From Acidimicrobiales bacterium (GTDB lineage: Bacteria; Actinomycetota; Acidimicrobiia; Acidimicrobiales; VFJN01): 64,000 nucleotides of DNA. Numbering within the stretch: the first letter of the stretch is position 1; each line of letters begins with the position of its first letter. A program made the translations under genes and the position numbers. Below the pieces are notes generated by a model. That model did not search any database. It was not told where the DNA came from and worked only from the letters and a program-made list of their open reading frames with translations. This document shows positions 4,387-57,433 of this stretch, piece by piece. The DNA lies in NCBI GenBank assembly GCA_035316325.1, contig DATHJB010000017.1:3434-67433 (forward strand), read 5' to 3'.

Positions 4387-5976
4387 ATGGCGGTCACTGG
4401 TCGAGACGGTCGCGAGACCTTCTACGAGGCGCAGGCGCGCCACCGCCGGTCGTCGTGGCGCTTCACCGCCCTGTCGGCGGGTGCGGTGCTGGTGCTGGGC
4501 CTGCCGTTGAGCGTGCTGGTGTCGCCGTTCGCGTCGGCGCTGGTGCTCGTCACCGCCGACGTGGTGAACCTGGTGGTGCCCACGCCCGACATCGGCGACG
4601 GCTACGGCGGGCTCGACAACGTCCCGGTCGCCGGGGGCCTGCTCGTGCCGGGCATGGTGGTCATGGGCCTCGCCTGGCTGGCCGTGCGCCGCATCTTCAT
4701 GCGCTCGGCCGCCGGCGCGGTGGTGCTGGCCTCGGGCGCCCGTCTCCCCGACCTCACCGACCCGGAGGAGCGCCGGCTCGTCAACCTCGTGGAGGAGATG
4801 GCCCTCGCCGCTGGCATCGTGCCGCCGCGGGTGATGGTGGTCGACAGCGACGCCGTGAACGCGGCCGTGGTGGGCCGGTCGGTCGACGACGTGACGATCA
4901 TCGTCCACAAGGCCCTGCTCGAGGAGTTGGGCCGCGACCCCACCAGCGCGGTCATCGCCGACCTCCTGGCCACCGTGGTCAACGGCGACCTGCACGCGGC
5001 GCTGGTGGTCGCCTCGGTCTTCCAGACCTTCGACCTCGTGGGCGCCGCGCTGGCGGCCCCGTTCAGCCGCAAGACCCGGCGGGTGCTGCGGCGCCTGGTC
5101 CGCCTGGCGATGCGCCCCGACGGGCCGCTGAGGGACGGCCGTGAGGAGCACTACATCGCCGAGGAGATGGCCGACCTGGCCATGCTCGGCGGTGAGGAGG
5201 GGCCGGGCGACCGCCGCTCGGGTTGCCTGACCTTCCCGTTCCTGGCCTCGTCGGTGGCCTACAGCCTGACCCACGGCCTGGTCGGCCTCTTCCTCGTCAC
5301 CCCGATCATGGGCGCGCTGTGGCGACGGCGGCGGCTGCTGGCCGACGCCACCGCCGTCGAGCTCACCCGCAACCCGGACGCCCTGGTGCGGGCCTTCAAG
5401 CACCTGGGCCGGCGGTCGACCCCGGTGCCCGCGGGCCCGTGGTCGCACCTGTTCGTGGTGGGCCCCGAGATCGAGCAGGGGCTGGCCAAGCGCCGCTTCG
5501 ACGAGCGCATGCACGCCCTGCGGGCCGAGGCGCGTCGGCCCGGCGAGTCGACCAGGGACCACGTGCGGCGCCGCCTGAGCGAGAGCACCGCCGTCCAGGC
5601 CGAGTACCAGAAGGCCCTCAACGAGGCGGCCGGCGACGCCGGCGGGCAGAGCCTGATGCGCAGCGGGCTCGACCGCTTCATCCCGCCCATGGACGTGCGG
5701 CTGCGGCGGCTGGAGGCGATGGGCGCCCAGCTGTTGGCCGGCCCGGCCGGCGCTCCGGTGCTGCGCCGCCCCCGGCCCACCACGCCCTGGGGCTGGGTGA
5801 AGCGCGTGGTCGGCGACGCCGTCGGCTGGGTGCTGGGCGCACTGCTGGTCGTGACGATCGCCGTGTGCGTGCTGCTGCTGATCGCCCTGCTGGCCGGGCT
5901 CATCTACGGGGCCCTGCTGCTCCAGGTGCTGGTCGTGGCCCTGCCGGTGTACATCGTGCACGCCGTGCTGCGCTGA
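4387..5976 (+). CDS. HtpX/M48-like membrane protein lacking zinc-binding residues
   Basis: M48 scaffold (LVNLVEEMALAAGI..PRV.V.DS..NA, LADATAVELTRNPDAL) with several TM segments. The HExxH position reads ADLLAT. Confidence 0.7.
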   Translation: MAVTGRDGRETFYEAQARHRRSSWRFTALSAGAVLVLGLPLSVLVSPFASALVLVTADVVNLVVPTPDIGDGYGGLDNVPVAGGLLVPGMVVMGLAWLAVRRIFMRSAAGAVVLASGARLPDLTDPEERRLVNLVEEMALAAGIVPPRVMVVDSDAVNAAVVGRSVDDVTIIVHKALLEELGRDPTSAVIADLLATVVNGDLHAALVVASVFQTFDLVGAALAAPFSRKTRRVLRRLVRLAMRPDGPLRDGREEHYIAEEMADLAMLGGEEGPGDRRSGCLTFPFLASSVAYSLTHGLVGLFLVTPIMGALWRRRRLLADATAVELTRNPDALVRAFKHLGRRSTPVPAGPWSHLFVVGPEIEQGLAKRRFDERMHALRAEARRPGESTRDHVRRRLSESTAVQAEYQKALNEAAGDAGGQSLMRSGLDRFIPPMDVRLRRLEAMGAQLLAGPAGAPVLRRPRPTTPWGWVKRVVGDAVGWVLGALLVVTIAVCVLLLIALLAGLIYGALLLQVLVVALPVYIVHAVLR

Positions 5977-6017
5977 CCCGGCTGGCCGCTCGCCAGTTAC
6001 GAGTTGATAGGGCCGCA

Positions 6018-6152
6018 TGTAGCACCTGTCAGCTGTCGTGAGTTCGCTGACAGGGGTGTGGCGGGTGATCGCTGACACCTGAGTTGGGGTCTGGGGTAGT
6101 CCTGGCTGCCATGGCCCGGAAGGTGGTTGCGATGGAAGCCAAGTTGTTGGCG
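6018..6152 (+). mobile_element. Probable truncated IS481-family left end with first transposase codons
   Basis: TGT terminus (6018), repeated CTGTCAGC/GCTGACA subterminal motifs, then ATG 6111 MARKVVAMEAKLLA. This resembles, from memory, N-termini of actinobacterial IS481 transposases. Lower-GC segment. Confidence 0.4.
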
Positions 6153-6501
6153 GATGGCTGGTCGAAGCTGGACTCGATGGGCGCCGGTCACCCGAACAGA
6201 CCGCCGGGTGGCTGCATAGCTCGTGGCACCCGCCCGCGCTCCCTTGACATCGAGGTCGCCTGGTTAGGAAGGCCGTCGGTGACGGCGGCCGCCCACACGC
6301 ACCCAGCAACCACACCGAGCCTCGACCCTCCACACTCCCGGCGCGGCCACTGACGAGCTACGCCTCGGAGCATGGGCCCACCGAGGCCCCCTGCGACGAC
6401 ATTCGGCGGCGAGGCCGCGAAGCGACGAGGAGTTCCCACCGCGGCTGGCGCAAGGCCGCAGCAGCAGTTGCCACCGCCGGCGACGTCTCGCGACATTGAG
6501 C

Positions 6502-6533
6502 TTGACCTTGACGCGAGGTCAACCCTGCAGGCT
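6502..6533 (+). promoter_or_regulatory. MerR-type promoter/operator for the ABC exporter operon
   Basis: TTGACC (-35) overlaps the dyad TTGACCT-N7-AGGTCAA (6502-6522). Extended 20-bp spacer to CAGGCT (-10). ATG 6540 follows, probably leaderless. A MerR gene is in the same operon. Confidence 0.75.
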
Positions 6534-6539
6534 GGTTTC

Positions 6540-7364
6540 ATGAGTAGGACACCAGCCATCAGGATCGCCGGGCTCATGAAGTCGTACGGCGACCTCGAGG
6601 TGCTTCGCGGCGTCGACCTCGACGTGGCGCCGGGCAGCATCTTCGCCCTTCTCGGCTCCAATGGGGCCGGCAAGACCACGGTCGTGAAGATCCTCTCCAC
6701 GCTCCTCAGGGCCGACGGCGGCACGGCCGTGGTGAACGGGTTCGACGTCGTCACACAGGCCGCGGACGTCCGCGAGTCGATCAGTCTCACCGGGCAGTTC
6801 GCCGCCGTTGACGAGATCCTCACCGGACGCGAGAACCTGGTGCTGATCGCCAAGCTGCGGCACCTCGACCAACCGGGCCGGATCGCCGACGACCTGCTCG
6901 CCCGCTTCTCGCTCACTGACGCTGGGGGACGTCGGGTGGCGACCTACTCGGGCGGTATGCGCCGCCGTCTCGACATCGCGATGAGCCTGATCGGGAGCCC
7001 GCCGGTGGTGTTCCTCGACGAGCCGACCACCGGACTCGACCCGCACGCTCGCCTGGAGGTGTGGCAATCCGTCCGCGAACTCGCCCAGGGCGGCACCACG
7101 GTTCTGCTCACCACGCAGTACCTCGATGAAGCTGAGCAGCTCGCCGAACGGATCGCGATCCTCCACGAGGGCCGGATCCTCGTGAACGGCACGCTCGCCG
7201 AGCTCAAGGCGCTGATGCCTCCGGCCCAGGTGGAGTACGTCGAGAAGCAGCCGAGCCTCGAAGACATCTTCCTCGCTCTCGTCGGTCGTCGCACCGGTGG
7301 GGAAGCCCCCCTGAGCGACACAGCGGCCCCCCGGTCGCCACGGACAAGTGAGGTCGGACGATGA
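6540..7364 (+). CDS. DrrA-like ABC exporter ATP-binding subunit
   Basis: GSNGAGKT, YSGGMRRRL, VVFLDEPTTGLD. Start moved to ATG 6540 to fit the promoter. Confidence 0.92.
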   Translation: MSRTPAIRIAGLMKSYGDLEVLRGVDLDVAPGSIFALLGSNGAGKTTVVKILSTLLRADGGTAVVNGFDVVTQAADVRESISLTGQFAAVDEILTGRENLVLIAKLRHLDQPGRIADDLLARFSLTDAGGRRVATYSGGMRRRLDIAMSLIGSPPVVFLDEPTTGLDPHARLEVWQSVRELAQGGTTVLLTTQYLDEAEQLAERIAILHEGRILVNGTLAELKALMPPAQVEYVEKQPSLEDIFLALVGRRTGGEAPLSDTAAPRSPRTSEVGR

Positions 7365-32152: not shown

Positions 32153-32932
32153 ATGCCCCGCATGCCTGAGCCCGTGACAGAGCCGTCGCCTGAGCTCTTC
32201 GCTGTCCAGAACCTGCACGTCCGGGTCGCCGGGACCGACAACGAGATCCTCCGCGGCGTCGACCTCGCCATCGGCGCGGGCGAGCTGCACGCCCTGATGG
32301 GGCCCAACGGGTCGGGCAAGTCGACCCTGGCCAACGCCCTGCTCGCCAGCCCCGAGTACGAGGTCACCGACGGGCGCATCCTGTTCCGGGGCGAGGACGT
32401 CACCGACTGGGACACCGAGGTCCTCGGCAAGGCCGGCATCTTCCTGGCCTTCCAGTACCCGCAGACCATCCAGGGCGTGTCGGTGATCAACTTCCTCCGC
32501 CAGGCGCTGTCGGCCCGCAAGGGCATCGACCTCTCGGTCCTCGAGCTGCGCCTGGCGATCATGGAGTGGATGGAGCGCCTCGACATGGATCCGGCGTTCG
32601 CCGACCGGTACCTCAACGAGGGCTTCTCGGGCGGCGAGAAGAAACGCAACGAGATCCTCCAGATGGCCATCCTCGAGCCCGAGGTGGCGATCCTCGACGA
32701 GACCGACTCCGGCCTCGACATCGACGCGCTCAAGGTGGTCGCCCGAGGCGTCGAGGAGGTCCGCAAGGACCGGCCCGAGCTGGGCATCCTGGCCATCACC
32801 CACTACCAGCGGCTGCTCGACTACCTGCAGCCCGACGTGGTCCACATCCTGATCGACGGACGGATCGTCGCCTCGGGCGGTCCGGAGCTGGCGAAGCAGC
32901 TCGAAGCGGAGGGTTACGAGGCATGGCGTTGA
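32153..32932 (+). CDS. sufC: Fe-S assembly ATPase SufC (copy 1)
   Basis: MGPNGSGKSTL, FQYP, NEGFSGGEKKRNE, LDETDSGLDIDAL. ATG 32162 is an alternative, possibly leaderless, start. Confidence 0.95.
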   Translation: MPRMPEPVTEPSPELFAVQNLHVRVAGTDNEILRGVDLAIGAGELHALMGPNGSGKSTLANALLASPEYEVTDGRILFRGEDVTDWDTEVLGKAGIFLAFQYPQTIQGVSVINFLRQALSARKGIDLSVLELRLAIMEWMERLDMDPAFADRYLNEGFSGGEKKRNEILQMAILEPEVAILDETDSGLDIDALKVVARGVEEVRKDRPELGILAITHYQRLLDYLQPDVVHILIDGRIVASGGPELAKQLEAEGYEAWR

Positions 32933-34191
32933 ACCACACCCCCGGAGCGGCCGACGTGCCCGAGCTCGACGTCCCTACCATCCGCAAGAAGTTCCCCATC
33001 CTCGACCAGCAGATGAACGGCCACCGCCTCGTCTACGTCGACTCGGCGTCGTCGTCGCAGAAGCCGGCGTCGGTCATCGACGCCATGAGCCGCTACTACG
33101 AGACCACCCACGCCAACGTGCACCGCGGCGTCTACGCCATCGCCGAGGAGGCCACCCGCCTCTACGAGCAGGCCCGCACCAAGGTGGCCCGCTTCGTCGG
33201 CGCCCCCTCCCCCAACGGCGTGATCTTCACCAAGAACGTCACCGAGGCCATCAACCTGGTGGCGTACTCGTGGGGCCGGGCCAACCTGCAGGCCGGCGAC
33301 GCCATCCTGCTCACCGAGATGGAGCACCACGCCAACCTGGTGCCGTGGCTGATCCTGGCCCAGGAGCGGGGCGTCGAGCTCCGGTACCTGCCGGTCACCG
33401 ACGACTACCAGCTCGACCTGACCGAACTCGACCGCCTCGTCGACGGCGTGAAGCTGGTCTCGGTCACCGCCATGTCGAACGTGCTCGGCACGCTCACGCC
33501 GCTCGACCGCCTGGTCGACGCCGCCCACGCCGCCGGCGCGCTGATCCTGGTCGACGGCGCCCAATACGTCCCCCACCTGCCCACCGACGTGCAGGCCCTC
33601 GACGTCGACTTCTTCGGCTTCACCGGCCACAAGATGCTCGGGCCGACCGGCATCGGCGTGCTGTGGGCCCGCGAGGAGCTGCTGGAGGCCATGCCGGCGT
33701 TCCTCGGCGGCGGCGAGATGATCCGCGACGTGCGGCTCGACGGCTGGACGCCCAACGACCTTCCCTGGAAGTTCGAGGCCGGCACGCCACCGATCGCCGA
33801 GGCCGTGGGCCTGGCCGTGGCGGTCGACGAGCTGACCGCCATCGGTATGGACGCCGTGCGGGCCCACGAGGTGTCGCTGACGGGGTACGCCCTGCGCACG
33901 CTCACCGAGCGCTTCGGCGACGACCTCGCCATCCACGGTCCCTCCGAGCCGTCGCAGCGAGGCGGCGTCGTGTCGATGCAGCTGGGTGACATCCACGCGC
34001 ACGACGTCTCGCAGGTGCTCGACCAGCACGGTGTGTGCGTGCGGGCCGGGCACCACTGCGCCAAGCCGCTGATGCGGCGTCTCGGCGTCAACGCCACGGC
34101 CCGGGCGTCGTTCTACGTGTACAACGACACGGACGACGTCGACGCACTGGCCGACGCGCTCGCAGCGACGCGAGACTTCTTCGCCATCTAG
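32923..34191 (+). CDS. sufS: Cysteine desulfurase SufS
   Basis: YVDSASSSQKP, ANVHRG, EMEHHAN, TGHKM, EAGTP, RAGHHCA. Confidence 0.95.
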   Translation: MALNHTPGAADVPELDVPTIRKKFPILDQQMNGHRLVYVDSASSSQKPASVIDAMSRYYETTHANVHRGVYAIAEEATRLYEQARTKVARFVGAPSPNGVIFTKNVTEAINLVAYSWGRANLQAGDAILLTEMEHHANLVPWLILAQERGVELRYLPVTDDYQLDLTELDRLVDGVKLVSVTAMSNVLGTLTPLDRLVDAAHAAGALILVDGAQYVPHLPTDVQALDVDFFGFTGHKMLGPTGIGVLWAREELLEAMPAFLGGGEMIRDVRLDGWTPNDLPWKFEAGTPPIAEAVGLAVAVDELTAIGMDAVRAHEVSLTGYALRTLTERFGDDLAIHGPSEPSQRGGVVSMQLGDIHAHDVSQVLDQHGVCVRAGHHCAKPLMRRLGVNATARASFYVYNDTDDVDALADALAATRDFFAI

Positions 34192-34211
34192 TCCGGAAGG
34201 AACCCCAGCGC

Positions 34212-34712
34212 ATGCCCGGTCTCGAAGATCTCTACCGCGAGATCATCCTCGACCACTATCGCAACCCACGGAACCGGGGTGAGCTCCCCGTGCCGCCCAG
34301 CACCCGGGTGGAGGGGTTCAACCCGCTGTGCGGCGACGAGATCGTGGTCTACCTCGAGGTCGATCCCGACACCGACACCGTGAGCGACCTGCGCATCGAT
34401 GGGCAGGGCTGCTCGATCAGCCAGTCGTCGGCGTCGATGATGTCGGCGGCGGTGAAGGGCAGGACGCTCGACGAGGTGCGGGCGCTCTCCCGGGCGTTCA
34501 AGGCGATGATGTCGATCCACGAGCAGGCGCTCGACGACGGGTCCGACGGCGCCGACGCCACCACGGCCGACGACCTGGAGATCCACGAGGACGTGAAGCT
34601 CGGCGACCTGGAGGCTCTCCGCGGGGTCGTGAAGTTCCCGGTCCGCATCAAGTGCGCGACCCTCTCGTGGAACACCCTGCTCCAGGGCCTCGAGGAGACC
34701 GCCAAGCCGTAA
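34212..34712 (+). CDS. sufU: SufU (NifU/IscU-like sulfur transfer protein)
   Basis: LYREIILDHY.NPRN.G, NPLCGD, GCSISQ.SASMM, RIKCATL. Confidence 0.93.
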   Translation: MPGLEDLYREIILDHYRNPRNRGELPVPPSTRVEGFNPLCGDEIVVYLEVDPDTDTVSDLRIDGQGCSISQSSASMMSAAVKGRTLDEVRALSRAFKAMMSIHEQALDDGSDGADATTADDLEIHEDVKLGDLEALRGVVKFPVRIKCATLSWNTLLQGLEETAKP

Positions 34713-51386: not shown

Positions 51387-52184
51387 CTATTCGCCGCCGA
51401 AGAGGTCGGCGAAGGTCTCGGTGCGGCGGATCGTGACCGGCTCCTCCTCGGCCAGCTCGGAGCCGAGCATCCCGGCGTAGCCGTCGCGCTCCAGCTCCTC
51501 GGCCAGCTCGGGGCCGCCCGAGCGCACCACCATCCCCCGGGCGAGCACGTGCACCCGGTCGGCCCGCAGCTCGGAGAGCAACCGGCTGTAGTGGGTGATC
51601 GCCAGCACGCCGAGGCCGTTGTTGGTGGCGGCCTCGATGCGCCGGGAGCAGGCCCGCAGCGCGTCGACGTCGAGCCCGGAGTCGAGCTCGTCGAGCACGG
51701 CGATCGCCGGCTGCAGCACCGCCAGCTGCAGGGTCTCGTTCTTCTTCTTCTCGCCGCCCGACAGGTCGACGTTGAGCGCCCGGCCCAGCAGGCGGGCGTC
51801 GAGGTCGAGCCGCGACGCCTCGGCCTCGATGCGCAGGTCGACGCCCTCGGGGTCGCGCCCTGCCGCCGCCAGCGCATAGCTCAGCAGCTCCTGCAGCGAC
51901 ACGCCCGGCACCTCGGTCGGGTACTGCAGCGCCAGGAACAGCCCGGCCTGCGCCCGCTCGTAGGGGGTCATCGCGAGGATGTCCCGGCCGTCGAGCGTCA
52001 CCGAGCCGCCCAGCACCTCGTAGCCGGGGCGCCCCATGATCACGTGGGCCAGCGTCGACTTGCCTGACCCGTTGGGCCCCATCACCGCGTGCACCTCGCC
52101 CGACCGCACGGTCAGGTCGACGCCCCGCAGGATCTCCTTACCGGCGACACCGGCCCGCAGGCCCGAGATCTCGAGGACAGCCAT
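51387..52184 (-). CDS. sufC: Fe-S assembly ATPase SufC (copy 2)
   Basis: MGPNGSGKSTL, LQYP, NVDLSGGEKKKNE, LDELDSGLDVDAL. Confidence 0.92.
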   Translation of the reverse strand: MAVLEISGLRAGVAGKEILRGVDLTVRSGEVHAVMGPNGSGKSTLAHVIMGRPGYEVLGGSVTLDGRDILAMTPYERAQAGLFLALQYPTEVPGVSLQELLSYALAAAGRDPEGVDLRIEAEASRLDLDARLLGRALNVDLSGGEKKKNETLQLAVLQPAIAVLDELDSGLDVDALRACSRRIEAATNNGLGVLAITHYSRLLSELRADRVHVLARGMVVRSGGPELAEELERDGYAGMLGSELAEEEPVTIRRTETFADLFGGE

Positions 52185-52495
52185 CAGTCGACCACCACCA
52201 ACACGTCGTCGCCGTCGACGACGACCTCGTAGACGGGCACACCCTTGGTGGCCGGCAGGGTCAGCGACTCGCCGGTCTCCAGCGAGAACTCGCTGCCGTG
52301 CTTCCAGCACTCGATGGTCTTCTCACCGGTGTGGATCTCGCCCTCGGACAGCGAGATGTTCTGGTGCGAGCAGACGTCGCCGATGGCGTACACGTCGTCG
52401 TCCAGGCGCACCACGGCGATGTGCCGCCCGTCGACGTCGAACCGCCGAGCCGTGTTCGGCTCCAGCTCGTCGAACGCGCAGATCCGCTGCTTCAC
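52184..52495 (-). CDS. Rieske-type [2Fe-2S] ferredoxin
   Basis: CSH...ECWKHGS Rieske motifs. GTG start at 52495 overlaps the sufD stop. Confidence 0.92.
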   Translation of the reverse strand: MKQRICAFDELEPNTARRFDVDGRHIAVVRLDDDVYAIGDVCSHQNISLSEGEIHTGEKTIECWKHGSEFSLETGESLTLPATKGVPVYEVVVDGDDVLVVVD

Positions 52496-53775
52496 GATTC
52501 TCTCCGGTCGAACTTGGCGGCCACGGTCTTCGCCAGCACCGAAGCGAGGCCCGCGACGGGCAGCTTGGCCAGCACCTCGCCGAAGAAGCCGCCCACGATG
52601 AGGCGCTCGGCCACGTCGGTCGGCAGGCCCCGGCTCTCCAGGTAGAAGCGCTGCTCCTCGTCGATCGGGCCAACGGCCGAGGCGTGGCTGCAGCGCACGT
52701 CGTTGTTCTCGATCATCAGGTTGGGGATCGACTCGGCCCACGCCTGCTCGGACAGCTTCACGTTGCGGTTCGTCTGGAAGGCGTTGGTGCCCCGGGCATC
52801 CTTCCCGACCCGGATGAGCCCCGTGTACACCGAGCGGGAACGACCGCCACCGGCCCCCTTGAACAGCAGGTTGCTGGTGCAGTCAGGGGCGACGTGCTCC
52901 TGGAAGGTGCGGAAGTCGAGCGTCTGGTCGCCCTCGCCGAAGTAGATGGCGTCGAGCTCGCCGGTGGCGCCCCGGCCGACCATGCGGCAGTCGGTGCGCA
53001 GGCGGGCGTACTCGCCGCCGAAGCCCACCGACGTGGAGCGGAACGTGGCCTCGGCCTCGACCCGGGAGGCCTGCAGGCCGATCTGCCAGGTGGACAGGTC
53101 GAGCTGCTGCACGTTGACGAAGCCGACCCGGGCGGCCCGCTCGGCCACGATCTCGGTGACCGGCACCACCAGGCCACCCTGGCCCGCCGACACCTGCACC
53201 TCGATCACCGACGCCGAGCTGTCGGCGCCGGCGTGGACCACCAGGCGGGGGAAGGCCGCCACCCGGTCGCCCTCGGTGACGTGCACGACCACCACGGGGG
53301 CGGGCAGCACCAGGCCGTCGGGGATGCGCACGACGACGGGCTCCAGCTGGGCGGCGTCGTTCAGGAGGGTGAAGGCGTCGGTGGCGGAGGGAGTGGGGCC
53401 CTCGCTGGAGAGCGCCTCGCCCAGCACGCCGACGTCGCCCTCGGCCGCCGGTCCGACCAGCAGGCCCTTGGCGGCGAGGCCCTCGTCGACCTCGACGTCG
53501 ACCACCCGGCCGTTGCGGGCGACGACCGTGGCCGCCCGGTCGACCAGGGCGCCGAGTACGTCGGGCACGTGCGACGACACGCCGCCGCGGCCGGGACCGT
53601 CGGACAGGGTGTACCCGTCGAGGTCGAGGTCGTCGATGCGGCTGTAGCGCCACAGCTCCTCGTCGGTGCTGGGCATGTCGACCTTGGCGAAGGCGGCGAG
53701 CGCCTCGGCCCGCCGCTCACGCAGCCAGTCGGGGCCGTCCAGCTCGAGGACGGCATCGGTCAGCGACGTGCTCAC
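52492..53775 (-). CDS. sufD: Fe-S assembly protein SufD
   Basis: DEELWRYS, DFRTFQEH.APDC.SNLLFKG, NAFQTNRN, SIPNL.IENNDVRCSH, FYLESRG. Confidence 0.92.
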   Translation of the reverse strand: MSTSLTDAVLELDGPDWLRERRAEALAAFAKVDMPSTDEELWRYSRIDDLDLDGYTLSDGPGRGGVSSHVPDVLGALVDRAATVVARNGRVVDVEVDEGLAAKGLLVGPAAEGDVGVLGEALSSEGPTPSATDAFTLLNDAAQLEPVVVRIPDGLVLPAPVVVVHVTEGDRVAAFPRLVVHAGADSSASVIEVQVSAGQGGLVVPVTEIVAERAARVGFVNVQQLDLSTWQIGLQASRVEAEATFRSTSVGFGGEYARLRTDCRMVGRGATGELDAIYFGEGDQTLDFRTFQEHVAPDCTSNLLFKGAGGGRSRSVYTGLIRVGKDARGTNAFQTNRNVKLSEQAWAESIPNLMIENNDVRCSHASAVGPIDEEQRFYLESRGLPTDVAERLIVGGFFGEVLAKLPVAGLASVLAKTVAAKFDRRES

Positions 53776-53808: not shown

Positions 53809-54168
53809 TCAGGAACGCTTGCGCCACCAGCGCTTCCAGCGGGGAGACTCCTCCTCGCGGCGCTGGGCCTGCACCTCGGCCAGGACGGAAGGCCCGACCG
53901 AGTTGATGATCTCCTCGGCCTCGTCGAGCAGCTTGGCCACCGAACCGTCGCCACGGTCGAGCGCGTCGAGCGGCTCGGCCGGTGTGGCCGGGGTGACCAG
54001 GGTGCCGTGGGCCCAGTTGACGTCGGCCATGCGCCGCTCGTAGCGGGGACAGTCGGCCGGGCAACGCCAAGGGGCCTCGGGGGCGAGATCGAGATCGCAC
54101 TTCCGCACCGTCTCGCCGTTGCGATAGGTGCGGGACTCGAAGTGCTTGCAGTCCTGGCGCATCGGCAC
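53809..54168 (-). CDS. Uncharacterised 4-Cys protein inside the suf operon
   Basis: MRQDCKHFESRTY.NGETVRKCDLDLAPEAPWRCPADCPRYERR. Co-oriented between sufB and sufD. Confidence 0.8.
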   Translation of the reverse strand: MPMRQDCKHFESRTYRNGETVRKCDLDLAPEAPWRCPADCPRYERRMADVNWAHGTLVTPATPAEPLDALDRGDGSVAKLLDEAEEIINSVGPSVLAEVQAQRREEESPRWKRWWRKRS

Positions 54169-54232
54169 AGCGCCATTGTGCCAGGACTGCAGGATGGAGC
54201 GGTATGCAGGTCAGCGGACATTCAGCTTGGGT

Positions 54233-55633
54233 CTAACCGACCGAGCCTTCCATCTGGAGCTCGATCAGCCGCGACCACTCCACGGCGTACTCCATGGGCA
54301 GGGTGCGGGTGACGGGCTCGATGAAGCCGTTGACGATCATGCTCATCGCCTGCTCGTCGCTGAGACCTCGGCTCTTCAGGTAGAAGAGCTGCTCGTCGGC
54401 CACCTTCGACACCGTCGCCTCGTGACCGACGACCGCGTCGCGGGCACCGATCTCCATGGTGGGGAAGGTGTCGCTGATCGAGTCCTCGTCGAGGATCAGG
54501 GCGTCGCACTGCACGTGGCTCTTGCAGCCGTAGGCGTCGTCCTCGACCCGGACCAGGCCGCGGTACGACGTGCGGCCGCCGTCCTTGGAGATCGACTTCG
54601 ACACGATCTTCGAGGTGGTCTCGGGGGCAGCGTGCACCATCTTGGCGCCGGCGTCCTGGTGCTGGCCCGGCCCTGCGTAGGCGACCGAGAGAACCTCGCC
54701 CGACGCCTTCGGGCCGACCATGTACACCGACGGGTACTTCATGGTGAGCCGCGAGCCGATGTTGCCGTCGATCCACTCCATGTGGCCCTCGGCCTCGACC
54801 CGCGCCCGCTTGGTGACCAGGTTGAACACGTTGTTCGACCAGTTCTGGATGGTCGTGTAGGTGACCCGGGCGCTGGGCTTGACCACGATCTCGACCACCG
54901 CGGAGTGCAGCGAGTCGGACGTGTACACCGGCGCCGAGCAGCCCTCGATGTAGTGCACCCGCGAGCCCTCGTCGGCGATGATCAGCGTGCGCTCGAACTG
55001 GCCCATGTTCTCGGTGTTGATCCGGAAGTAGGCCTGCAGGGGCATGTCGACCTCGACGCCCGGCGGCACGTAGATGAACGACCCGCCCGACCACACCGAC
55101 GAGTTCAGCGCCGAGAACTTGTTGTCGTTCTTGGGGATGATCTTGCCGAAGTAGGGCTTGACGATCTCGGGGTAGTCGCGCAGCGCCGTGTCCATGTCGC
55201 AGAAGATGACGCCCTGCTTCTCGAGGTCCTCACGGTTGCGGTGGAACACGACCTCGGACTCGTACTGGGCGGTGACGCCGGCCAGGTACTTCCGCTCCGC
55301 CTCCGGGATGCCCAGCTTCTCGTAGGTGTTCTTGATGGCGTCGGGCAGCTCGTCCCACTGGTCGACCTGACCCTCGGTGGGCTTCACGTAGTAGAAGATG
55401 TCGTCGAAGAAGATCTGGGACATGTCGCCGCCCCAGTTCGGCATGGGACGACGTTCGAAGTGCTTGAGCGAGCTGAGGCGGAAGTCGAGCATCCAGTCGG
55501 GCTCGCCCTTCATCCACGACATCTCGCGGACGATCTCCTCGTTCAGGCCCTTGCGGGGCTTGAAGACGTAGTTGCTCTCTTCGTCGGACCAACCGAGCTT
55601 GTAACGCCCCAGGTCGAGATCAGCAACGGCCAT
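54233..55633 (-). CDS. sufB: Fe-S assembly protein SufB
   Basis: [47 protein letters not shown]. Confidence 0.97.
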
Positions 55634-55772: not shown

Positions 55773-56513
55773 GTGCTCATGCCGGGAAGACAGGACGACG
55801 GGCCGCGCCCGCTGGTGCTGCTGGCCGACGACGAGGAGGCCATCACCGCCAACCTGGCGCCCTTCCTCGAACGGTCGGGCTTCCGGGTGCACGTGGTGCA
55901 CGACGGCGAGGCCGCGCTGCGGGCCGTCCACGACCGCGATCCCGACCTCTGCGTGCTCGACGTGCTGATGCCCAGGCTCAACGGCCGTGAGGTGCTGCGC
56001 CGCCTGCGGGCCGACGGCATGTGGGGGCCGGTGCTGCTGCTCACCCAGGTCGGCGAGGCGGGCGAGCGGGCCATGGCGCTGGAGGAGGGGGCCGACGACT
56101 ACCTCAACAAGCCGTTCGACCCCCAGGAGCTGGTGGCCCGCATCCGGGCGGTGCTCCGCCGGGCCCGGCCCGGCCGACCGCCGCTCAGCGCCGCCGGCAC
56201 CCTCCGGAGCGGTCGCCTGCGCTTCGACCGGGTGGCCCGGCGCGCCTGGCTCGGCGACGGCGAGCTCACGCTGACGCCGAAGGCGCTGACCCTGCTCGAC
56301 TACCTGCTCACGCATCCCGACGAGCTGCTCACGCGGGAGCGCCTGCTCGACGTCATCTGGGGCTTCACCACCCCGGTGGGCACCCGGGCGGTCGACAACC
56401 GCGTCGCCGAGCTGCGCCGCCTCCTCGGCGACGACGCCGCCGACCCCACCTGGATCGAGACCGTGTCCGGCCTCGGCTACCGCTTCTGCGCCAAGGTGGA
56501 GACCGCGTCGTGA
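55773..56513 (+). CDS. OmpR-family response regulator
   Basis: LLADDE, LDVLMP, DDYLNKPF and C-terminal wHTH (IETVSGLGYRF). Confidence 0.95.
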   Translation: MLMPGRQDDGPRPLVLLADDEEAITANLAPFLERSGFRVHVVHDGEAALRAVHDRDPDLCVLDVLMPRLNGREVLRRLRADGMWGPVLLLTQVGEAGERAMALEEGADDYLNKPFDPQELVARIRAVLRRARPGRPPLSAAGTLRSGRLRFDRVARRAWLGDGELTLTPKALTLLDYLLTHPDELLTRERLLDVIWGFTTPVGTRAVDNRVAELRRLLGDDAADPTWIETVSGLGYRFCAKVETAS

Positions 56514-57433
56514 GCGCACCGCCCGTCTCCCCTCCTTCTTTGCAGGAAAGGCGCCCTCTACGGGCGCTGGTCCTTCAAGGAGCGGTGGCCCCAGCGGCCC
56601 TGGGCCTCGCGGTGGCCGCCTTCCTGCGCCTCCGGTCACCCACCCAGAACGTCTACACGGAGACCCGGCTGTGGATCGCCGCGGCGATCGCCGGGCTGCT
56701 GGTGTCGGCCGTCCTGGTCGCGGTGACGCTGGGGCGGGAGCGGCTGGCGGCCGCCCGGACCGAGGCCCTGGTGACCGCGGGCGAGGAGCACCGGCGGTTC
56801 CTGCTGCGGCTGGACCACGAGCTGAAGAACCCGGTCACCGCCATCCAGGCGGGGCTGGCCAACCTCCCCGCGTCGGGAGCGGCGGCGAGCGTGTCGGCCC
56901 AGGCCCGCCGGCTGGCCGACCTGGTGGCCGACCTGCGCAAGCTCGCCGAGCTGGAGACCCGGCCGCTGGAGCGGGCGCCGGTCGACGTGGCCGAGATGCT
57001 CACCGAGATCCACGAGGTCGCCGTCGAGCTGCCCGGGGCCGACCAGCGGGCCCTCACGCTCAGCCTGCCGCAGGCCCCCTGGCCGGTCGGCACCATCCCC
57101 GGCGACCGCGACCTGCTGTTCCTGGCCATCCACAACCTGGTCGTGAACGCCGTGAAGTTCTCGCACCCGGGCGACCGCATCGAGATGCGCGCCCGCGACG
57201 AGGGCGACCACGTGGTGGTCGAGGTGGCCGACACCGGCATCGGCATCCCGGGCGACGAGGTGGACCACATCTGGGACGACCTGGCCCGCGGCTCAGCCGC
57301 CGCCGGCACGCCCGGGAGCGGGTTGGGCCTCGCCCTGGCCCGGGTCGTCGTCGGGCGCCACGGCGGCAGCGTCTGGGTGCGCAGCCGGGTCGGCGACGGG
57401 ACCGTGATGGGCCTGCGACTCCCGGCGGCATGA
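56510..57433 (+). CDS. Sensor histidine kinase (two TM, minimal extracellular loop)
   Basis: DHELKNP, NLVVNAVKF, DTGIGI, GSGLGL. Confidence 0.92.
   Translation: MSAPPVSPPSLQERRPLRALVLQGAVAPAALGLAVAAFLRLRSPTQNVYTETRLWIAAAIAGLLVSAVLVAVTLGRERLAAARTEALVTAGEEHRRFLLRLDHELKNPVTAIQAGLANLPASGAAASVSAQARRLADLVADLRKLAELETRPLERAPVDVAEMLTEIHEVAVELPGADQRALTLSLPQAPWPVGTIPGDRDLLFLAIHNLVVNAVKFSHPGDRIEMRARDEGDHVVVEVADTGIGIPGDEVDHIWDDLARGSAAAGTPGSGLGLALARVVVGRHGGSVWVRSRVGDGTVMGLRLPAA

Follow-up and report, generated by a model that had tools for sequence, protein, structure and literature searches.

A four-cysteine gene inside a suf operon

The window, by which we mean the whole 64,000-nucleotide stretch of DNA that was analysed, carries on its minus strand a suf operon in which a gene for a small protein with four N-terminal cysteines lies between sufB and sufD, 64 nt from the end of sufB and 33 nt from the start of sufD. 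An initial annotation had described a co-oriented, 119-residue open-reading frame with the cysteine spacing C-x16-C-x11-C-x3-C at this position (53809..54168, minus strand); the open-reading frame list and the sequence confirmed both the frame and its placement, with all genes concerned on the minus strand. The GTG start given there was also right, as the position of the start codon is kept in 69/69 and 80/80 homologues, in which an ATG or GTG stands exactly two codons before a conserved Met-Arg (M-P-M-R). The encoded protein, referred to here as the four-Cys protein, begins MPMRQDCKHFESRTYRNGETVRKCDLDLAPEAPWRCPADCPRYERRMADV, ends RWKRWWRKRS and has its cysteines at residues 7, 24, 36 and 40. 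In-frame GC3 of the gene is 0.89, against 0.57-0.87 in the overlapping frames, and dN/dS relative to five close homologues is approximately 0.19-0.56; the open-reading frame is a genuine gene under purifying selection. The features of the locus, all on the minus strand, are as follows.

54233..55633, minus strand: sufB, the upstream neighbour (TIGR01980, 705 bits; PF01458)
54175..54183, minus strand: predicted promoter -10 region (position-specific conservation relative to the start codon)
53809..54168, minus strand: four-Cys protein coding sequence (GTG start at 54168, conserved Met-Arg from 54162, stop codon 53809-53811)
54028..54162, minus strand: N-terminal Cys4 domain, residues 3-47 (invariant core A29 P30 P33 C36 P37 C40 in alignments)
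54148-54150, 54097-54099, 54061-54063 and 54049-54051, minus strand: codons of C7, C24, C36 and C40, respectively
53944..54027, minus strand: Pro-rich linker, residues 48-75 (moderately conserved, ADVxWxHGxLVxPxTPxEP in an alignment of 41 sequences)
53848..53943, minus strand: acidic amphipathic helix, residues 76-107 (conserved LLDEAExIVN motif; AF2)
53812..53847, minus strand: basic Trp-rich C-terminal tail, residues 108-119, EESPRWKRWWRKRS region (charge statistics, AF2)
52492..53775, minus strand: sufD, the downstream neighbour (PF01458; TIGR01981, 220 bits)
52184..52501, minus strand: Rieske-type [2Fe-2S] ferredoxin gene, exact start not fixed (PF00355, E = 1.7e-18)
51387..52184, minus strand: sufC of the sufB/sufD operon (TIGR01978, 271 bits)

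No terminator-like site was found between sufB, the four-Cys gene, sufD, the Rieske gene and sufC, and a scan of the operon against Rfam returned no known RNA element at E ≤ 0.1. A second, partial suf cluster, sufC'-sufS-sufU, is present on the opposite strand at 32153-34712 of the window (plus strand), 18 kb from the sufB-four-Cys-sufD-Rieske-sufC cluster; its sufC' (TIGR01978, 306 bits) is 49% identical to the sufC listed above, and its sufU lies at about 34.2-34.7 kb. The usual actinobacterial suf operon appears to be split in two here, with sufC duplicated. Nothing contradicted the statement in the initial annotation that the window holds no SufT, SufA or SufE; two DUF59/SufT-type genes and one A-type carrier gene occur on other contigs of the genome, and the idea that the four-Cys protein stands in for a missing SufA, SufT or SufU was rejected because such carriers are present elsewhere in the genome. 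There is no SufR gene at the position usual for Actinomycetota, and matches to SufR (TIGR02702) elsewhere in the genome are weak, the best full-length-like one having E = 3.5e-4. Divergent from sufB, at 55773-57433 (plus strand), are genes for an OmpR/PhoB-type response regulator and a histidine kinase.

Conservation and predicted fold of the protein

Conservation of the cysteines across homologues had been named as a check on the proposed metal binding, and C7, C24, C36 and C40 proved invariant in all alignments. In alignments of 41, 23 and 82 sequences the invariant positions are C7, C24, A29, P30, P33, C36, P37 and C40, giving the core APxxPxxCP, whilst R4, S12, R13, G18, L26, L28, A32, W34 and R35 are near-invariant. 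The C-x16-C-x11-C-x3-C spacing itself is kept in 230 of 270 retrieved homologues, the rest of which look like fragments or frameshifted calls. Two AF2 models were built, one of the full-length protein (mean pLDDT 77) and one of the N-terminal domain alone from 82 sequences (mean pLDDT 69). In the cysteine region, residues 10-14 and 20-24, lying between C7 and C24, are predicted to form a beta-hairpin, and C36 and C40 sit in loops (pLDDT ~66-86); this region is followed by a linker of low confidence (residues 48-75, pLDDT 56-77), a helix at residues 76-107 (pLDDT >90) and a short basic helix at residues 111-118. Neither model had a match in the PDB by Foldseek, the best hits being WW-domain hairpins at E ~1.5.

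The acidic helical region and the basic, Trp-rich tail RWKRWWRKRS described in the initial annotation are borne out by the sequence, by AF2 and by 174 full-length homologues. Across these the acidic helix has a median net charge of -6 over 25 residues, with L81 and A84 nearly invariant (alignment of 41 sequences), and the C-terminal 15 residues carry a median net charge of +5, reaching +4 or more in 88% and containing W, F or Y in 92%, with the recurring pattern (P)RW+R(W/L/F)xRR+.

The presence of four invariant cysteines and no other conserved ligand indicates a single metal centre, which the four cysteines would bind, with a lean to Fe-S over Zn. The lean towards Fe-S comes from the lack of a CxxC zinc knuckle, the terminal C-x3-C-P and the Fe-S and redox genes in the neighbourhood; sequence alone cannot settle between Fe-S and Zn.

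A large family confined to the Acidimicrobiia

The four-Cys family is large and wholly unannotated. A word-seeded search gave 6595 clusters at 90% identity, all designated hypothetical protein and without a Pfam domain, the named sources being Acidimicrobiales or Acidimicrobiia MAGs, and an exhaustive HMMER scan of 1.84 billion representatives gave 271 clusters at 50% identity, likewise without a family name. At least 581 species genomes encode a relative in a scan of species genomes, the carriers including Microthrixaceae, Ilumatobacteraceae, Aquihabitans, 'Ca. Aldehydirespirator', 'Ca. Poriferisocius' and one cultured organism, Actinospongicola halichondriae Hal317. Within the class, the gene was found in 155 of 301 sampled Acidimicrobiia genomes, 74/76 in the order of the window and 81/225 in the other orders, and some families of the class are wholly without it, among them one with 1.1-Mb genomes.

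Outside the Acidimicrobiia, a search of ~370 genomes of the phylum with an N-domain profile found one convincing relative, itself part of the training set of the profile. This relative (loci L018/L116), from another class of the phylum, has the same cysteine spacing and a hydrophobic C-terminal segment, and adjoins a DUF6504 gene and a gene for an error-prone-type DNA polymerase III alpha subunit. The range of the family hardly extends beyond the class Acidimicrobiia, which upholds the view of the four-Cys protein as lineage-specific. The protein also matches no known family: Pfam and NCBIfam scans gave no match at E ≤ 0.1, PDB sequence and profile searches with full-length and N-domain alignments turned up nothing beyond a trivial local resemblance to C2H2 fingers, and a second profile search of the protein database returned close relatives only among the matches listed. 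We found no description of the family in the literature. Paralogues of ~60 residues that consist of the Cys4 module alone occur in three genomes (loci L112 in G362, L114 in G366 and L115 in G225), and in two families such short paralogues are divergent from a gene for a pyridine-nucleotide disulfide oxidoreductase (Pyr_redox_2 plus dimerisation domain), a further neighbour with a redox function.

A close parallel is with the WhiB-like proteins (Wbl, PF02467), [4Fe-4S] proteins that are likewise small (about 80-130 residues) and actinobacterial, with four conserved cysteines in the N-terminal half and a basic C-terminus, and both are plausible Fe-S or redox sensors. The Wbl spacing is, however, C-x(14-22)-C-x2-C-x5-C followed by a G[V/I]WGG turn, whereas the four-Cys protein has C-x16-C-x11-C-x3-C and no GxWGG motif, and the cysteine module is helical in Wbl but a beta-hairpin with loops in the AF2 prediction. 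Homology to Wbl was rejected, since PF02467 gave no match at E ≤ 0.1 and hhalign against an alignment of eight Wbl proteins of the genome gave a probability of 0.3% over 1 aligned column. The genome has nine ordinary Wbl genes, and the Wbl proteins examined all have the Wbl spacing and the G[V/I]WGG turn.

The ferredoxins of Fe-S operons (Fdx of isc, the Rieske protein of actinobacterial suf) offer another parallel, that of a gene for a small Cys-ligated metalloprotein, putative in the four-Cys case, beside the scaffold genes, and a Rieske gene lies two genes downstream in the same operon. The four-Cys protein differs from them in sharing only the terminal C-x3-C-P of CxxCxxCxxxCP, in having an extra acidic helix, a basic tail and a predicted promoter of its own, and in that most orders of the class carry its gene apart from suf. 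A Fer4 ferredoxin was rejected as no ferredoxin family model, Fer4 included, matched in a search that did recognise a true Fer4_15 ferredoxin beside a homologue in another locus (L117). A zinc ribbon or C2H2 finger was likewise set aside, there being no CxxC pair and no Foldseek match; the likeness to designed C2H2 fingers in the PDB profile search extends over 15-17 residues (EAPWRCPxxC against EKPYKCPEC), repeated over six fingers. With SufA (PF01521), SufT/DUF59 (PF01883), SufU and SufE the four-Cys protein shares small size, linkage to a suf operon and a non-scaffold nature, and no Pfam or NCBIfam profile for SufA, SufT, SufU (TIGR01994), SufE or SufR (TIGR02702) matched it.

Linkage to suf across genomes

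The initial annotation had inferred a lineage-specific Fe-S- or Zn-binding carrier, sensor or membrane-tethering subunit of Suf and had taken co-localisation of its homologues with suf as the yardstick; by that measure only half of the claim to a subunit of Suf is borne out. In the order of the window 12/12 loci and 25/28 loci (1.5 kb flanks) and 74/80 loci (2.5 kb flanks, the 80 best-matching of at least 581 species genomes) are linked, and in the other orders the homologues are unlinked. There, all of 34 four-Cys loci, a count that includes both copies where two exist, lack sufB, sufD and sufC within 5 kb.

Among the 80 best-matching species genomes the arrangement varies. The order sufB-four-Cys-sufD is found in 42, and 19 have four-Cys-sufD-Rieske-sufC without sufB within 2.5 kb upstream; seven have sufB-four-Cys without a sufD match downstream (the flank being shorter than 800 nt in four of these), five show the four-Cys gene divergent from sufD and one a different arrangement again, and the last six lack any suf gene nearby. 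The four-Cys gene is thus directly upstream of sufD and co-oriented with it in 61 of the 80, and these counts point to sufD rather than sufB as its constant partner. In almost every related locus, also in the other orders, the Rieske gene comes after sufD.

In the other orders the homologues are equally conserved. Nine of their genomes show the empty site, where sufD comes straight after sufB at a distance of ~26-125 nt. At ~10 of 20 first-copy loci in these orders a divergent gene for a PAS-GGDEF protein (diguanylate cyclase) lies immediately upstream, for example at 5481-7094 of locus L064, whilst for the second, 'ARFC'-type paralogues of some other-order genomes no conserved neighbourhood was found and the neighbours vary. 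A quick tree of the family follows taxonomy, so that the location in suf has the look of a single ancestral move, kept from then on.

Several rearrangements of the surrounding region were also seen. Additional genes often lie between sufB and the four-Cys gene. In one genus (g2; loci L007, L008, L010 and L011) the gene found there is for a 333-residue EamA-like membrane protein, an EamA-type transporter, and many further genomes have a gap of 0.5-2 kb in this place, which suggests that insertion here is recurrent. Another genus, of the order of the window (genomes G346 and G514; loci L138, L139, L141 and L117), has a divergent second-type cluster ferredoxin-sufB-sufC-sufD in which sufB is 42-44% identical, and here the four-Cys gene follows, in G346, a 4Fe-4S ferredoxin and a 338-residue SufBD-core paralogue and, in G514, only the ferredoxin. 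Three genomes of other orders (G314, G304 and G359; loci L136, L137, L140 and L142-L144) have a SufB with inserts of ~1.1 kb or more inside one frame of ~1000-1100 residues, placed after residue 125 and, in G359, a second time after residue 293; the inserts are intein-like in look.

A predicted promoter and leaderless start

Upstream of the fixed start codon, in DNA that is otherwise unconserved, an element is kept at constant distance, with G at -14 in 66-88% of loci, A at -11 in 64-85%, A at -9 in 60-74% and T at -7 in 69-82%. The combination of A(-11) and T(-7) occurs in 50/69 and 48/80 loci (77/80 when a shift of ±1 nt is allowed), compared with 0-3 at control offsets, and a Shine-Dalgarno-like motif was seen in 6/35, 4/20 and 9/80 loci (19/135 in all). 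In the window, the element comprises T54183 and G54182, forming the 'TG' of an extended -10, and the hexamer CACAAT at 54180..54175, followed by 6 nt and the GTG at 54168; position -12 of the -10-like hexamer is C or A, without the usual T.

Mycobacterial transcription start sites are preceded at 7-12 bp by a TANNNT motif, of which TGN is the extended form (PMC3898074). The spacing of the element matches that of an actinobacterial -10 relative to the transcription start, which makes the start codon itself the predicted 5' end of a leaderless mRNA. We infer transcription of the four-Cys gene from an extended -10 promoter that belongs to it, giving a leaderless mRNA with its 5' end at the GTG at 54168. 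In its start codon fixed 6 nt after nAnAAT, the G at -14 and the usual absence of a Shine-Dalgarno motif it resembles leaderless genes of Actinomycetota, where the transcription start is the start codon and TANNNT lies at -12..-7; it differs from them in the C or A at -12 and in lying inside an operon, 64 nt after sufB. A sigma-54 reading of the 'TGGCAC' found in some of the promoters was rejected, as the motif is present in a subset only and lies at -15..-10 from the start codon, not at -24/-12 from the start site; to our knowledge, Actinomycetota generally lack sigma-54.

With a promoter of its own, the four-Cys protein would be made independently of the sufB promoter. The initial annotation had placed the gene under an operator shared by the operon, a claim that we regard as doubtful: the DNA upstream of sufB showed no inverted repeat, and the four-Cys gene has its own -10-like element, so control by a shared operator seems unlikely. 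No 11-mer from the region upstream of sufB recurs at meaningful places in the window. The -10-like motif is equally present in four-Cys copies inside and outside suf, suggesting that the gene was already autonomous when it came into the operon. From its position, the predicted internal promoter could also read into sufD-Rieske-sufC, and the 19 species that lack sufB upstream probably transcribe the sufD-Rieske-sufC unit from it.

Possible roles of the four-Cys protein

Our preferred reading, offered tentatively and held at somewhat less than even confidence, is that the four-Cys protein binds metal through its Cys4 site, probably as Fe-S, works with SufBCD as an accessory or sensor and is expressed from its own leaderless promoter. 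On this reading the four cysteines would hold one metal centre, most likely an Fe-S cluster, and the protein would assist the SufBCD scaffold in a cluster-dependent way, whether by sensing or as an adaptor/carrier. The acidic helix may form a protein-contact surface and the basic, aromatic tail may bind a polyanionic surface, either membrane or nucleic acid. The strongest point for a functional tie to SUF is that adjacency to sufD persists through inversions and operon splits in the order, and the strongest point against an obligate SUF subunit is the existence of unlinked homologues in other orders. As these suf-unlinked homologues are equally conserved, the core function of the protein needs no linkage to suf. 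The predicted cysteine module also counts against the preferred reading, its AF2 confidence being moderate (66-86) and without a structural analogue.

The order-wide linkage could instead be inherited gene order, kept because the four-Cys promoter serves sufD-Rieske-sufC. It would then be possible for the protein to be a structural Zn(Cys)4 mini-protein with a role unrelated to Fe-S assembly, e.g. as a membrane-peripheral or nucleic-acid-associated factor, its site in suf being the frozen accident of one ancestral insertion, retained since the promoter drives the downstream suf genes. We think this unlikely, though it accounts for a linkage restricted to a single order and in step with taxonomy on the tree, for the 6/80 species of the order that have lost the linkage, for the local resemblance of 'EAPWRCPxxC' to the C2H2 knuckle 'EKPYKCPEC' and for the 19/80 species in which the gene heads four-Cys-sufD-Rieske-sufC, so that its promoter is likely that of the operon. 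The usual zinc-ribbon signature, a CxxC pair, is however absent, and adjacency to sufD is kept even in the 5/80 species where the gene is inverted and driving sufD is impossible, as is adjacency to the SufBD paralogue and ferredoxin after rearrangement. Adjacency kept through both inversion and rearrangement indicates more than a role as promoter donor.

A redox- or Fe-S-sensing regulator unrelated to cluster delivery, whose Cys4 centre reports oxidative or iron status and whose tail binds DNA, RNA or the transcription machinery, would be a functional analogue of WhiB-like proteins without homology to them, and its position in suf would do no more than place its own expression and that of sufD-Rieske-sufC under one promoter. 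Such a role, which we consider rather unlikely, is in keeping with an autonomous gene that has its own conserved predicted promoter in every context and is equally conserved away from suf beside signalling genes (PAS-GGDEF), with the small size and polybasic tail of the protein, and with a genome offering only weak SufR-like matches (best full-length-like E = 3.5e-4); against it, the protein has no recognisable DNA-binding fold, the hhalign comparison with Wbl gave 0.3%, no conserved operator was found and the Trp/Phe-rich tail looks at least as suited to a membrane interface as to nucleic acid. That last property would fit a membrane tether, in which the Arg/Trp tail anchors the protein, and via the acidic helix also SufBCD, at the cytoplasmic face of the membrane for membrane Fe-S clients or iron import. 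The tail pattern, (P)RW+R(W/L/F)(W/F/L)RR+, is conserved, and both the relative outside the class (L018/L116) and one 242-residue homologue (P0180) have a TM-like hydrophobic segment after the basic stretch, but such a segment occurs in only 2 of 174 full-length homologues, possibly mis-called fusions, and some tails are pure poly-Lys, a better fit to nucleic acid; we regard a tether as improbable.

A more specific form of the preferred reading, an Fe-S accessory or sensor tied to SufBCD, is bolder and, in our estimation, quite unlikely to hold in full: the protein would be a hitherto unrecognised, class-specific part of SUF, a leaderless-expressed Cys4 Fe-S protein that docks on SufD/SufBCD and either gauges cluster occupancy, tuning scaffold output via the internal promoter, or passes clusters to recipients at the membrane. 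Such a SUF partner would be of a new kind, lacking a counterpart in E. coli, Bacillus and Mycobacterium.

In Actinomycetota, Fe-S assembly runs mainly or solely through SUF, a pathway whose accessory factors have been little described beyond model organisms. The four-Cys family is very large, sharply lineage-restricted and wholly unannotated, with an invariant Cys4 site, and lies beside the scaffold genes across a whole order; the existence of at least one cultured carrier, A. halichondriae Hal317, opens the question to experiment. Even if the protein turned out to bind Zn and to have nothing to do with Fe-S assembly, it would represent a new domain family, with an internal promoter that splits the suf operon. 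If instead it binds a cluster and contacts SufD/SufBCD, it would be a new component of the SUF pathway, and its gene an autonomous, leaderless one captured by an essential operon, reshaping the transcription of that operon.
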